Notes under the pieces: model-generated
Databases searched by the model: none
What the model was told of the DNA's origin: nothing
What the model saw: the letters and a program-made list of their open reading frames with translations, nothing else
Sequence record: MN850615.1
Source of the DNA: Escherichia phage kvi
Strand: one strand, 5' to 3'
Length of the DNA stretch: 64,000 bases
Made by a program: the position numbers and the translations under genes
Part shown: in pieces, positions 25,901-31,618 of the stretch
Layout: every line of letters starts with the position of its first letter
Numbering within the stretch: the first letter of the stretch is position 1

Positions 25901-26221
25901 TTAGTCCTCACTTATAAGGTCAAACCAATTGTTTTTCGCATAATGCTTAATGCGTGCTTGATCTGCTTCCGCTGGTGATAGATTCCATGCAACCACTACA
26001 ACTTCTGACGCATCGTCATCCGTTTCTGATACCCAATGATTGTGATTCATACAGTTATTTGCTATCGAGTGAGCAAATGATTTCATCACTGGAGACGTAT
26101 AATCATAGTAACGGATTTTCAGATTTTCATCAACGTACAAATAGATCGTATAAGGTTTATATTCAGTAACCAGTAACAGACAGTTACGCAATTCTGGGAA
26201 AATCTTTTTAGTTAATTTCAT
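25901..26221 (-). CDS. HxHW-family small protein
   Basis: 106 aa; NHNHW..VVVVAWN; N-terminus similar to 24939 member. Confidence 0.5.
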   Translation of the reverse strand: MKLTKKIFPELRNCLLLVTEYKPYTIYLYVDENLKIRYYDYTSPVMKSFAHSIANNCMNHNHWVSETDDDASEVVVVAWNLSPAEADQARIKHYAKNNWFDLISED

Positions 26222-26222
26222 T

Positions 26223-26441
26223 TTATAATCCTCGGTCGCGGCTATAGTACACGGTACGCCATACAATTTCATGTTTCGTGTCGCTCCAGCACACGATCTC
26301 ATTTACTCTTAAATCTTTGTTATCAACAAAAGATGAACATTGTGACGCTTCTTTCATCATTTTATATGCTGTTTTCTCATCAAATACAGCACAGATTTCT
26401 TTATACACTCGATAATCTTTGAATTGACTCTGGATACCCAT
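26223..26441 (-). CDS. Hypothetical protein (paralog pair with 26401..26658)
   Basis: 72 aa from ATG 26441; FKDYRVYKEI..KMMKEASQC. Confidence 0.45.
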   Translation of the reverse strand: MGIQSQFKDYRVYKEICAVFDEKTAYKMMKEASQCSSFVDNKDLRVNEIVCWSDTKHEIVWRTVYYSRDRGL

Positions 26442-26658
26442 AATTAACACCATTCCAACCAATTGTTTTTGAGAAAACGTTTATCCACTGTTGAGTGTAG
26501 CATGTTTCTTTCCATGATACAATACGAGTAGAATAATGGTTTTTGTTTCCAGAAAAGGACGGGCATTTTGATGCATCTTCCATCATCTTTTCGGCGAACT
26601 CTGGTGCGTATACTCGCAGGATCTGTTGATATGCTTTGTATTCTTTAAATTTGCTCAT
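26401..26658 (-). CDS. Hypothetical protein (paralog pair)
   Basis: 85 aa; FKEYKAYQQI..KMMEDASKC; 3' end overlaps next gene in another frame. Confidence 0.45.
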   Translation of the reverse strand: MSKFKEYKAYQQILRVYAPEFAEKMMEDASKCPSFSGNKNHYSTRIVSWKETCYTQQWINVFSKTIGWNGVNYGYPESIQRLSSV

Positions 26659-26923
26659 AATCATTCACTACCTTATCAGCTTCTTTTGTTGTTTTTACAT
26701 CAACTGCGATAACTCGTAAATGTTCGTCATGGTTCCACCAGTGGTCATGAATATCAGCTTGTGATTTATCACCAAAGGAATCACGAATATCATTTTTACA
26801 TTTATAGCTAATGTGACCTTCATAGTCAACATAAAGGTAATTATCGAAAATCGGCGTTTTTAAGATCATACCGAAAAATCTTTCTTTGTGTGTCTTATCC
26901 AGCGTTGCAGTAATTCGCATCAT
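26645..26923 (-). CDS. HxHW-family small protein
   Basis: 92 aa; IHDHWWNHDEHLRVIAVDV. Confidence 0.5.
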   Translation of the reverse strand: MMRITATLDKTHKERFFGMILKTPIFDNYLYVDYEGHISYKCKNDIRDSFGDKSQADIHDHWWNHDEHLRVIAVDVKTTKEADKVVNDYEQI

Positions 26924-27381: not shown

Positions 27382-27410
27382 ATTATAGGGGATCGGTGAT
27401 CCCCTGTCAA
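27382..27410 (-). promoter_or_regulatory. Early promoter with palindromic spacer
   Basis: TTGACA-GGGGATCACCGATCCCC-TATAAT. Confidence 0.65.
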
Positions 27411-27415
27411 CAACT

Positions 27416-27709
27416 TTATAATGCTTTATATGCGTATTTCATAAATTTGTCTGCCACTTCATTGGCATGTTCAGATTCTACGCCTGATTCGAGAACAATA
27501 GCTAGGTCGGTTTCGTCATTCCCGCCGTACCAATGATTTGATGTTCGATTTTTTTCAATTGGAAATTGGTCACTTTTATCTGTGCGACAAAATACATCTA
27601 AATGCTCGTCGATGTAAAAGATCCAATCTTCATAAAGAATAACGGTATTAGAAAGATTTTTATTGCCTTCAACGAAAGGTTCGGCTACAAACAAATTAGT
27701 ATGTTCCAT
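27416..27709 (-). CDS. HxHW-family-like small protein
   Basis: 97 aa from ATG 27709; YIDEHLD..NHWYGG..LAIVLESGV; GAGGA SD. Confidence 0.45.
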   Translation of the reverse strand: MEHTNLFVAEPFVEGNKNLSNTVILYEDWIFYIDEHLDVFCRTDKSDQFPIEKNRTSNHWYGGNDETDLAIVLESGVESEHANEVADKFMKYAYKAL

Positions 27710-27966: not shown

Positions 27967-27995
27967 ATGTTATATCACACAAAATGGCGTGTCAA
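27967..27995 (-). promoter_or_regulatory. Putative early promoter (TTGACA-17-TAACAT)
   Basis: -35 lies within the 3' end of the upstream gene. Confidence 0.4.
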
Positions 27996-28295
27996 TGCTT
28001 CTTTTGCGGTTCCGCTAAGACTTTCGATCTCGCCTGGCATAACATCAACCGCCAGAACTTCTACAACATCCTCGGACCCTAACCAGTGAGTATGACCTTT
28101 GTAGAACTTAATAACCAGACTACCTTCCTCGTCCCATTTAACGCTATCGCTAGCCCACCACACATCACCGTCGATAAAGTTGATGTAAAGCACACTACGC
28201 CACATTGAATTAATTACTTTCAATACTGCGCCTTTCATCTCTTCCACGGTATGGTCTTCCATTTTGAAGACCTCACCTACCTGAACTTTTGCCAT
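27975..28295 (-). CDS. HxHW-family small protein
   Basis: 106 aa; GHTHWLGSEDVVEVLAVDV; GAGGTG SD. Confidence 0.5.
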   Translation of the reverse strand: MAKVQVGEVFKMEDHTVEEMKGAVLKVINSMWRSVLYINFIDGDVWWASDSVKWDEEGSLVIKFYKGHTHWLGSEDVVEVLAVDVMPGEIESLSGTAKEALTRHFV

Positions 28296-28526: not shown

Positions 28527-28555
28527 AGTATAGGGGATCGGTGATCCCCTGTCAA
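28527..28555 (-). promoter_or_regulatory. Early promoter with palindromic spacer
   Basis: TTGACA-GGGGATCACCGATCCCC-TATACT. Confidence 0.6.
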
Positions 28556-28920: not shown

Positions 28921-28949
28921 AGTATAGGGGATCACCGATCCCCTGTCAA
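28921..28949 (-). promoter_or_regulatory. Early promoter with palindromic spacer
   Basis: TTGACA-GGGGATCGGTGATCCCC-TATACT (loop inverted relative to 28527 copy). Confidence 0.6.
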
Positions 28950-28961
28950 CAACTTTTTGAA

Positions 28962-29438
28962 TTATTTTTCTTGATGCTCGCGATCGTACTTTTCGAAATA
29001 AAATTCTACTGGCTGGTCGTGGATTGACAGCAAGCCAAAGCGTTTAGCCGCTCGCAATCCCATATTGCGCTGAATGTACTTCTGGAAGTTCTCGCGTATA
29101 CACTTACGCCAGGATTCTAAGCCCATGCAGCTTTTATAAAGATTGCATTGCACACATGCCGGATTCATGTTATCAAGTATATCATGCTCCGGTTTATGCA
29201 TTCCTACAACCTTATACTTCCACGATCCATCATCATTACGGGCAATTCGTCCATTTTCATCATAGACAACCTTTGAGCGTCGTAATACTGGTTTGATATG
29301 GTCTGCGTGCCAGCGATCCCCTAGTTCCTCGCCACAATAGGCACAACGTCCACCGTATTTCATTTTCAGGATCTGACGTTGCTCTTTCTTTGACAATTTT
29401 TTAGGTTTAGGGGCTTTCGCCCCTTCATTATCACACAT
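28962..29438 (-). CDS. HNH endonuclease
   Basis: 158 aa; CAYCGE..WHADHIKPV..NMNPACVQCN; start overlaps ligase stop by 8 nt. Confidence 0.8.
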   Translation of the reverse strand: MCDNEGAKAPKPKKLSKKEQRQILKMKYGGRCAYCGEELGDRWHADHIKPVLRRSKVVYDENGRIARNDDGSWKYKVVGMHKPEHDILDNMNPACVQCNLYKSCMGLESWRKCIRENFQKYIQRNMGLRAAKRFGLLSIHDQPVEFYFEKYDREHQEK

Positions 29439-30927
29439 CGAATACCTCTTTTACTGTATTTGCAGCGGTCTTGTCGTAGCGAATACGTTTGATGATCGGG
29501 AGAAATAAAGAGAACTCCGGTTCATCTTCTTTACGTGATTTGCTGCGAATGTACCCGTTGCATGTCATCTCGATGACTTTTCCAATCAGGTTATGACGGT
29601 CAGCCCATAACATTTCTCGGTCAAGTTCATTTCGACGATCGAACGGAATTACACGTTCGATACCATCATCACCTTTTTCGGTTGTAGTGTCGGTTAATCC
29701 CGATCCGGTGTTAGTCATCATTCGTCCACACGCACTACGGACAGTAAAACCGCCTACCTTATTGGGGTCTTTACTATGCGGATATACATCAACAATTTCC
29801 GCGTCGAAGTCAATCACTTCTTTAAATTTAACCTGATCTTTACTACGGCGATCTTCAAATACACCATGTAAATTTTTAAGGATAATACCTTCTAAGCCCA
29901 TGTTGACATAACGATGATATACTTCGCGAGCTTCATCGATATTGTTAACTACAGTGTTTTCGATGATCTGAACACGAGGATCGTTAAGTTCTTCAACAAT
30001 CTGTTTTAGTTCTTCAAATCGATCTTTATATTGCTTCGTTGCTTTCTCGTTTCCGTAGTACACATCACGGTCGATAACATCCCAGACAGTGTAAACAATA
30101 CATTGGGCTTCTTCTTTTGGAATAGTTCCTTTCAGTGATTTGTTGAGGATACCATTTCCGGTCTGACGGTCTGCAACAACGGATTCTTTCACTGCTTCCG
30201 CTACTGGCGTTAATGGCATTTCCTCTTCTTCAAATATCCATGACAGAGTACCATCATAAACGCTCTCAACGAAGTTCTGCGCTGGTGTTTGCGAAAGGGT
30301 AGGCATATATACCAATTCACCATCTAGAACAATTCCACGGCCTCGTAGACGCTCTAAAACCGCAAACAAATCATCAAGTCCTTGATAGGTATTACCTGAG
30401 CGGGTATAGATTGCTAATGTTTCCCCGTCAATATCAGCCATACCACGAGCGCCATCGCTTTTAAGTTGTGCATACGCCGGATACTTGATATTAGCAATAG
30501 TCTTATCAGAACATGACGATGCAAGGTGACACGGTTGCTGGGGGATCAGTTTCTTCCATACCTTGTTTGCAGTGGTAGCGGAACAACCACATTCCAGATC
30601 ACGATTCAGGACCATCATTGCAACTTTAGCATCATCTTCTGACAAGCAAGTCAGAGTATCGGTAACTAGCTGTAATGCTGCGTTACCAGTTACTTGACGC
30701 GTGGCAAGTTTATTTTTAAAGACCTGTAATGCACCGGATAAAGACAATACAGACGAATAGCGAGATGGTTTATCGTATTTCTTTACGCCAAACGTAACCT
30801 GTTTGCAATATGCCAGATAAAAGCATTCTTTCAGTGTTTCATTGCTTGCAGATTCTTTCAGGATCTTTTCTTTCAGCGATGTTTTGTCGGTCGCTGCAAG
30901 CTGGTTAATGATATTAAGAATTGACAT
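29431..30927 (-). CDS. 30: ATP-dependent DNA ligase gp30
   Basis: 498 aa from ATG 30927; KVW..LIPQQP..LASS, AQLKSDGAR (KxDG), LDGELVY, EGIILKN, KFKEVID as in T4 ligase. Confidence 0.9.
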   Translation of the reverse strand: MSILNIINQLAATDKTSLKEKILKESASNETLKECFYLAYCKQVTFGVKKYDKPSRYSSVLSLSGALQVFKNKLATRQVTGNAALQLVTDTLTCLSEDDAKVAMMVLNRDLECGCSATTANKVWKKLIPQQPCHLASSCSDKTIANIKYPAYAQLKSDGARGMADIDGETLAIYTRSGNTYQGLDDLFAVLERLRGRGIVLDGELVYMPTLSQTPAQNFVESVYDGTLSWIFEEEEMPLTPVAEAVKESVVADRQTGNGILNKSLKGTIPKEEAQCIVYTVWDVIDRDVYYGNEKATKQYKDRFEELKQIVEELNDPRVQIIENTVVNNIDEAREVYHRYVNMGLEGIILKNLHGVFEDRRSKDQVKFKEVIDFDAEIVDVYPHSKDPNKVGGFTVRSACGRMMTNTGSGLTDTTTEKGDDGIERVIPFDRRNELDREMLWADRHNLIGKVIEMTCNGYIRSKSRKEDEPEFSLFLPIIKRIRYDKTAANTVKEVFDV

Positions 30928-31393
30928 TTTCACCTCGTTTTGTTAAACGTTCACGAATATCATTGAGGATACTACAAAATTCCGATTCAGTCAATATAGT
31001 CTTTAACGGATCAGTTCCACCTATGCTATGACGCAATTTCTTATTTCCGGTAGCGAGTAATGCTTTACAAAATTCTGGGTTATTCCGTGCCATCGTAACA
31101 AATGCCAGATGTACCAGTCTGTAATAATGCTCACTCATTCGATGAATAGGGCGACCCTGAAAATATAACATGTGATTCTCAATCTTTTCAGTTCTTCCGG
31201 TTCTTTTTGCTTTGCCACCGTGCATCAAAAAGATTTCTCTTTGTCTCTGAGGGTTCTTAAATCTTAGCCCCTGTAAAAATCCTTCTGTGCTGTTAATATC
31301 GCAACCAAATAGACGGAATGGTCTTTTATTGAAATTACTCAATTCACCCGATGGATAAGGTCCACCCGCATAGATATCAATTTCAGAAGTCAT
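30914..31393 (-). CDS. NADAR (DUF1768)-like protein
   Basis: 159 aa; GGPYPSGELSNFNKRPF..EGFLQGLRF..EHYYRLVHLAF fits the NADAR/YbiA pattern. Confidence 0.55.
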   Translation of the reverse strand: MTSEIDIYAGGPYPSGELSNFNKRPFRLFGCDINSTEGFLQGLRFKNPQRQREIFLMHGGKAKRTGRTEKIENHMLYFQGRPIHRMSEHYYRLVHLAFVTMARNNPEFCKALLATGNKKLRHSIGGTDPLKTILTESEFCSILNDIRERLTKRGENVNS

Positions 31394-31547
31394 TGAAACT
31401 AATCTCGCTAATCAGAGAGAACGGATCATAATCGTCATTAGGAATATCGATAGTAATCGAATGAGGGTTTACCCATACACCAAACTGGTCTTCTTCGGTG
31501 AATACTTCGGTATGGATTTCGTGGATGTTTACATTCATAGTTTTCAT
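31383..31547 (-). CDS. Hypothetical small protein (54 aa)
   Basis: Not in track; AAGGA SD; 3' end overlaps NADAR start. Confidence 0.3.
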   Translation of the reverse strand: MKTMNVNIHEIHTEVFTEEDQFGVWVNPHSITIDIPNDDYDPFSLISEISFNDF

Positions 31548-31590: not shown

Positions 31591-31618
31591 CAAAATATAG
31601 GCGGGATTATTACCCGCC
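31591..31618 (-). terminator. Terminator after gene 31
   Basis: GGCGGG-ATTATTA-CCCGCC with T-run on - strand. Confidence 0.5.

Follow-up and report, generated by a model that had tools for sequence, protein, structure and literature searches.

A gene for a small HNH endonuclease lies directly after the DNA ligase gene (gene 30) of Escherichia phage kvi. We consider it best explained, with a probability of roughly 55%, as a formerly mobile, homing-type cassette that was captured beside gene 30 and is now fixed there, its linkage to ligase being a matter of position. The DNA analysed, 64,000 nucleotides of record MN850615.1 (the window), comes from a Krischvirus genome, that is, an RB49-like phage of the T4 type, and the 4-kb stretch around the HNH gene matches 58 complete phage genomes at 96–99% identity. 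The gene itself is already known. Its counterpart in RB49, ORF212c or RB49p212 (NP_891783.1), shares 97.5% amino acid identity, the same position after gene 30 and the same 8-nt overlap with it; it is annotated as 'HNH endonuclease' in RefSeq, and RB49ORF212c was placed among 'putative mobile DNA elements' by Nolan et al. in 2006 (PMC1524935). A literature search for functional data on the gene returned annotation-level mentions only. What is added here is the distribution of this known gene, the purifying selection acting on it, its co-divergence with ligase and the context of its family. The original prediction had offered three functions, namely a domesticated homing nuclease, a nicking enzyme partnering ligase and a packaging-associated HNH protein. 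The first fits the data best and the other two fare poorly.

Position of the HNH gene at the end of gene 30

The HNH coding sequence occupies 28962..29438 on the minus strand and specifies, from an ATG start (29436–29438), a protein of 158 aa with a predicted mass of 18.7 kDa and a pI of 9.3. Upstream on the same strand lies gene 30 (29431..30933), assigned as ATP-dependent DNA ligase by Pfam PF01068 (E 2.8e-22), PHROG 114 (E 2e-141) and the RB49 annotation; its longest ORF has 500 codons from a GTG start at 30933, and the ATG annotated in RB49 comes two codons later. The ligase TGA stop (29431–29433) falls within the HNH start region, giving the 8-nt overlap ATGTGTGA (29431..29438, minus strand) that the original prediction had described, and the overlap is identical in RB49, SSG23, Makalu_002 and JSE. 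A Shine-Dalgarno sequence, AGAGG (29445..29449, minus strand), is located within the ligase coding sequence 6 nt upstream of the HNH ATG, and the annotation of Ec_Makalu_002 has a ribosome-binding site at the equivalent place. The GC content of the gene is 43.6% vs. 40.5% for the window, and a comparison of their base composition gave no clear foreign signal.

RNA folding places a GNRA-tetraloop hairpin, GGGGC-GAAA-GCCCC (29410..29423, minus strand), in HNH codons 6–10. The hairpin is stable and may affect translation or mRNA stability. In the alignment, the 24-nt segment that contains it is identical in five Krischvirus genomes and missing in a metagenomic relative (contig L008).

Domain, catalytic residues and predicted fold

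The protein belongs to Pfam HNH (PF01844), scoring 27.0 bits where the gathering threshold is 21.4 (E 5e-6), and to PHROG 2118, 'HNH endonuclease', which matches over its full length (residues 4–157, E 1.2e-54). The Pfam alignment covers residues 32–53 only, because a beta-hairpin insertion of 35 aa (approximately residues 54–88) splits the HNH domain. In a family alignment of 112 sequences (the window protein and 111 homologues), the two CxxC pairs recognised in the original prediction, C32/C35 and C95/C98, are invariant as zinc ligands, and the catalytic residues D46-H47, N90 and N99 are present and invariant, as is K102. The conservation extends into a family-specific C-terminal region, which is helical, carries an FYFE motif and has R111, F146, F148 and E149 invariant in the same alignment. 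An AlphaFold2 model built with the 112 sequences is confident (mean pLDDT 93) and has the beta-beta-alpha fold that defines the HNH superfamily. The DH...N...N arrangement is the catalytic set of Cas9- and McrA-type HNH domains. The ORF is therefore a small beta-beta-alpha-metal nuclease of the Cas9/McrA-like 'DH-N-N' type with a CCCC structural zinc site, and with both its active site and its zinc site intact it is, judged by its residues, catalytically competent.

The characterised small phage HNH enzymes with two CxxC pairs are site- and strand-specific nickases (PMC3592412), and MobA and MobE of T4 nick DNA as well (PMC2988022). By analogy with these enzymes nicking is the likeliest activity, and we infer that the protein most likely nicks or cuts duplex DNA at short sites in a metal-dependent manner.

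Several other classes of HNH protein were considered. Similarity to the HNH domains of Cas9 and IscB is at the level of the fold only (16–23% identity), and the Krischvirus protein differs from both in standing alone, without a RuvC domain, an RNA guide or a CRISPR context. An McrA-type restriction endonuclease was rejected, since no N-terminal domain reading modified DNA is fused to the HNH. A defence-system effector (Septu PtuB, retron HNH, CBASS Cap5) was rejected too: NCBIfam and PADLOC gave weak matches to retron, PtuB and Cas9 models, limited to the core motif, with E-values from 5e-4 to 1e-2. The neighbours of the HNH gene include none of the corresponding partner genes (PtuA ATPase, reverse transcriptase, SAVED domain).

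Weak matches to PHROGs labelled as endonuclease VII (E 4e-10 and 1e-6), a weak match to PF02945 (E 0.079) and BFVD proteins named 'recombination endonuclease VII' raise the idea of a second junction resolvase or debranching enzyme of the endonuclease VII kind. We regard this as very unlikely, as PF02945, at 13.3, misses its cut-off of 23.6, the similarity is limited to the shared HNH core, the structural match is weak, and RB49 has a canonical gene 49 (RB49p061). Whether the HNH protein might replace endonuclease VII was checked by looking for a gene 49 homologue; there is none in the window, but RB49 has the gene elsewhere, and the idea was rejected.

Distribution among Krischvirus and other T4-like phages

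Each of the 58 complete Krischvirus records has the HNH gene, always at the same site and with 95.8–100% nucleotide identity; a 59th record matching the ligase is a 1.5-kb GenBank fragment that ends inside gene 30. The copies in phages W115 and AV108 are 100% identical to that of the window. A T4-type ligase was found in 1813 phage records, the next-best ligase after those of Krischvirus being 46% identical. Homologues of the HNH protein occur in 175 phage records, 117 of them outside Krischvirus, and all of these 117 have less than 60% identity; in a spread sample of the matches listed, all non-Krischvirus entries are records of 12–79 kb from phages that are not of the T4 type. A tblastn search at E<=1e-3 gave no match in the hundreds of T4-like genomes outside Krischvirus. 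The synteny comparison thus shows that, among the T4-like phages in the collection, the gene is specific to Krischvirus, given that its homologues elsewhere are below 60% identity and those sampled are not T4-type.

The position after gene 30 is occupied differently in other genera. In T4 it is alt.1 that overlaps the 3' end of gene 30; this gene encodes 62 aa, is unrelated to the HNH gene and shares 4 nt with gene 30, so the original remark that a nuclease after ligase departs from the T4 arrangement was correct. Gene 30 is followed by alt in Acinetobacter phage 133 (Acj133) and by proteins of unknown function in one Klebsiella and one Aeromonas phage, and a nuclease after gene 30 was not found in any of the other T4-like genera examined. 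These differences indicate that the 3' flank of gene 30 is a variable junction.

Two further observations concern this junction. In Klebsiella phage Kiwi_ER50 (contig L183, 3302–3973), a 223-aa protein of PHROG 21266, the function of which is unknown, overlaps the ligase 3' end by 26 nt and takes up the position that the HNH has in Krischvirus. Three T4-like contigs from freshwater metagenomes (L136, L151 and L169) have an unrelated short HNH ORF approximately 1.3 kb, or a few genes, downstream of ligase; it reads CAYCGG...DH...N...CVKC, is devoid of the insertion, and is the only other ligase-proximal HNH seen, which is probably a coincidence.

Selection and co-divergence with ligase

Pairwise comparison of five Krischvirus genomes gives dN/dS values of 0.02–0.08 for the HNH gene at dS 0.17–0.31, with values of 0.01–0.04 for ligase and 0–0.09 for gene 30.3 in the same genomes. 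The HNH gene is under strong purifying selection, similar to that on ligase, and these values, together with its conservation in 58 phage genomes, show that it is not a chance ORF. A deeper comparison is provided by two metagenome contigs, L008 and L009, in which the ligase C-terminus and the HNH protein are 71% and 70% identical to those of the window and the gene order is the same. In L008 the two genes overlap through a TAATG stop/start instead of the 8-nt overlap, and on both contigs the HNH gene is followed by a canonical terminator and then by an early-type promoter. Between this lineage and the window, dN is 0.24 and 0.22 for the two genes. The shared order implies that the pair predates the genus Krischvirus and that its two members diverged at the same rate, the sample for this being one metagenomic lineage represented by two short contigs from related samples. 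Searches of phage collections, IMG/VR and metagenome contigs yielded no Krischvirus-like ligase that lacked the HNH gene; in IMG/VR and the metagenomes, all ligases at least 98% identical had the HNH after them, and the remaining ligases were at most 44% identical.

One Krischvirus-like contig (L101; MAVA01000210.1, 435–1029) has three separate 1-nt deletions in the HNH gene, and shortly before the HNH stop codon its sequence diverges from that of the window. Decay of this copy, errors in sequencing and a chimeric assembly are all conceivable causes.

Once fixed, a homing endonuclease would be expected to decay. The strong conservation seen here argues instead for a direct benefit to the phage, and this blurs the line between a captured, fixed cassette and its most serious rival. 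In that reading the gene encodes an accessory nuclease, made early, that takes a direct part in the DNA metabolism of the phage or in host takeover and owes nothing to past mobility. Such an enzyme might degrade or nick host or competitor DNA, act in counter-defence, or process replication or recombination intermediates, as is thought for nin-region nucleases. Strong purifying selection and retention in every complete Krischvirus genome are what would be expected of it, as is co-expression with early replication genes. RB49-type phages have ordinary cytosine DNA; they would thus be without the selective degradation of cytosine DNA practised by T4 and might use another nuclease. Against this, all other T4-like genera do without the HNH gene, no specific pathway is indicated, and nothing in the sequence explains how the enzyme would tell self from host DNA. 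We rate the accessory role as a tentative alternative, clearly less probable than a captured and fixed cassette.

Operon structure and the overlap with ligase

The HNH gene is the last of four ORFs on the minus strand that overlap head to tail. The run starts with a 54-aa ORF (31383..31547; PHROG 15277), with a terminator-like hairpin (31600–31618, minus strand) just upstream of it, and continues through gene 30.3 (30914..31393; PF08010, E 1e-38), which overlaps the ligase start, and gene 30. Start/stop overlaps are present at every junction of this operon and also between gene 30 and alt.1 in T4, from which we conclude that the 'translational coupling' of ligase and HNH is ordinary gene packing. 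A promoter search found no late promoter upstream of the HNH gene nearer than gene 31.

As a side observation, the product of gene 30.3 (30914–31393) also has a weak match to the NADAR domain (E 0.02). NADAR enzymes remove ADP-ribose from DNA, so that the match may hint at a DNA-repair link with ligase.

The overlap bears directly on the proposal that HNH and ligase form a nick-and-seal module, in which site-specific nicks made by the HNH protein would be resealed by ligase or would prime replication or recombination, with coupling setting the stoichiometry. Krischvirus phages conserve the 8-nt overlap, the 70%-identical relative retains one of the form TAATG, the two genes have stayed side by side through 29% divergence of the ligase, and both enzymes act on nicked DNA. 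However, the overlap is of a generic kind, as described above, and the HNH gene has its own strong Shine-Dalgarno sequence. The T4-like genera with alt.1 (T4), alt (Acj133) or proteins of unknown function after gene 30 have no nuclease there. Outside Krischvirus the family has no tie to ligase either: none of approximately 90 other loci (80 from IMG/VR, together with annotated phage loci and Logan contigs, Krischvirus-like contigs being the exception) has a T4-type ligase within 4–6 kb. The suggestion in the original prediction of a nicking enzyme working with ligase has adjacency as its support, and with other family loci lacking a T4-type ligase and the overlaps being generic, we consider a functional partnership improbable.

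Starting 13 nt past the HNH stop codon, the promoter scan identified the first PeSL element of the hyperplastic region (28921..28949, minus strand; repeat family D1), an early promoter of the form TTGACA-17-TATACT with the stem-loop GGGGATCGGTGATCCCC in its spacer. PeSLs combine a terminator and a promoter in one cassette and were reported from RB49 and phi1 and subsequently from other T4-like phages (PMC2839356, PMC4122927). The window has three copies vs. 0 expected by chance (27384–27410, 28529–28555 and 28923–28949, all on the minus strand), each composed of TTGACA, a GGGGATCnnnGATCCCC stem-loop in the spacer and TATA(C/A)T. A small hyperplastic-region ORF follows each copy, and the copies resemble one another over up to 73 nt of flanking sequence. 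Across Krischvirus genomes, the DNA downstream of the PeSL varies, whereas the HNH gene and everything upstream are conserved. The HNH gene thus closes a conserved early operon that borders on the hyperplastic region.

Within the PeSL stem-loop there are two GATC sites, the target of Dam, and RB49 has its own gene for a Dam methylase. One could imagine that the HNH protein nicks the DNA of its own phage during replication, for instance at, or close to, the GATC-rich stem-loops of the PeSLs, and that the co-translated ligase reseals it, making the pair a nick/seal device that would drive PeSL-mediated modular shuffling or recombination-primed replication in RB49-like phages; we regard this elaboration as highly speculative and far from probable.

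Beyond the HNH gene, four small ORFs of the hyperplastic region on the minus strand (25901–26221, 26645–26923, 27416–27709 and 27975–28295) share the motifs YLYVD, HxHW and VxAVDV weakly but consistently, at 18–24% identity, which suggests a diverged paralogue family. Two further ORFs, 26223–26462 and 26401–26664, resemble tandem paralogues.

Relatives of the HNH protein outside Krischvirus

Homologues in other phages occur in a variety of places. In Edwardsiella phage eiAU-183 the homologue (gp20) lies between the DNA polymerase and helicase genes; in Salmonella phage c341 (gp24) it is in the ea region beside other HNH genes; and in Acinetobacter phage fEg-Aba01 (gp38) it comes directly after the helicase gene. 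At the 80 IMG/VR loci, the commonest upstream neighbours are O-like initiators, P-like loaders and primosomal proteins, and downstream neighbours include RusA, NinG and Q antiterminators, i.e. the nin region of lambdoid prophages. Homologues beside O/P replication genes and RusA/NinG are in keeping with an accessory role in DNA metabolism, but other phage groups have the gene only sporadically and can do without it, which weakens that case.

The clearest example of dispensability comes from the siphovirus group of HC6 and Bas77, in which the homologue is located just upstream of the terminase genes. Comparison of phage HC6 (L002, 3453–3917) with Seszw_1 (L181, around 1412–1420) reveals a clean indel of approximately 464 bp that corresponds to the HNH ORF, directly upstream of a gene resembling the terminase small subunit, with flanks that are 92% identical. 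The two phages provide a usable filled-site/empty-site pair for the PHROG 2118 HNH family. The contexts of the family and this clean indel indicate a free-standing cassette that phages can dispense with and that settles next to conserved genes, the cassette behaviour being documented in this one phage group outside Krischvirus.

The same group supplies the argument for a role in packaging, in which the HNH protein, like HK97 gp74 or that of phage gamma, would assist terminase in cutting concatemers. The terminase-adjacent homologue of HC6/Bas77 is its main attraction, but close relatives within this sole terminase-adjacent group are without the HNH gene, and most homologues are found in replication or nin regions. 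In T4-type phages, DNA is packaged by the headful, with gp17 supplying the nuclease. In the window, the gene belongs to an early operon of replication genes, with gene 30 and small hyperplastic-region ORFs as neighbours in place of terminase or portal genes, and has no late promoter upstream. The packaging function offered in the original prediction thus finds little here to recommend it, and we rate it as extremely improbable.

Where the Krischvirus copy came from can be suggested from its nearest relatives. The closest homologues outside the genus, at 45–49% identity, share the long insertion and are on contigs with typical phage genes, and the RB49 annotation of the gene records similarity to a Salmonella plasmid ORF. 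These observations suggest that the gene was acquired horizontally, with a mobile element of enterobacteria as its source.

Comparison with known phage HNH systems

The Krischvirus protein and its PHROG 2118 relatives share the domain, the invariant residues and the C-terminal FYFE region, and all are encoded by early-region genes. The relatives, at less than 50% identity, belong to temperate phages and siphoviruses, lie in replication, nin or ea regions or beside terminase, and are sporadic among related phages. The Krischvirus copy differs from them in having the longest beta-hairpin insertion and in being fixed beside ligase.

MobA-E and I-TevIII of T4 are similar in that an HNH gene has been inserted beside a conserved, essential gene of a T4-type genome. 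As expected of a Mob-type element, the Krischvirus gene is next to conserved genes, lying directly 3' of gene 30 at the boundary between core and hyperplastic region, but it is not sporadic among close relatives, none of the 58 complete genomes being without it. RB49 ORF040 (AP2-HNH), by contrast, is absent from the close relative phi1 (PMC2839356). Homology to the Mob, Seg and I-Tev enzymes of T4 was not detectable by tblastn at E<=1e-3. Compared with Mob/I-TevIII, the protein is without a long C-terminal DNA-binding extension, and its gene is embedded in an operon with a good ribosome-binding site, whereas the Mob type is regulated separately and tightly. The site-specific nicking HNH enzymes N.phiGamma, Gme HNH (4H9D) and GVE2 HNH (5H0O), which come from phages and prophages, serve in packaging, and their genes adjoin cos sites and terminase, which is not the case in Krischvirus; the Krischvirus protein is further distinguished from these three by its extra 35-aa insertion and its family-specific C-terminal region.

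A proposed captured and fixed cassette

Based on these comparisons, we propose the following history. A phage-borne family of free-standing HNH genes (PHROG 2118) would come and go as discrete cassettes, and an ancestor of Krischvirus would have captured one copy, most likely from an enterobacterial temperate phage. Insertion would have taken place immediately behind gene 30, on the border of the hyperplastic region, and made the cassette the last cistron of the early 30.3-30 operon. Its transcription would depend on read-through, and its translation either on an AGAGG site of its own or on coupling to termination of ligase translation. In Krischvirus it would then no longer be mobile, having become fixed and having co-diverged with ligase. 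It is this combination, a cassette elsewhere in the family and here a gene fixed and under purifying selection, that makes the domesticated homing nuclease of the original prediction the best fit.

Fixation, co-divergence with ligase and purifying selection together suggest that the phage keeps an active nuclease. The benefit would most likely be as with the homing nucleases of T-even phages, namely the cutting of DNA from co-infecting or competing phages that is without the protected allele. Competition with co-infecting phages and an accessory role in early DNA metabolism are the leading candidates for what maintains the gene.

Should the HNH protein prove to be a nickase with a short recognition site, it might be of practical use as an enzyme. 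For the biology of these phages, an HNH cassette that is mobile and sporadic in other phages and is fixed, selected and operon-embedded in one T4-like lineage provides a clean evolutionary example, making the Krischvirus gene a reasonable test case for asking what benefit keeps a 'domesticated' homing-type nuclease alive.
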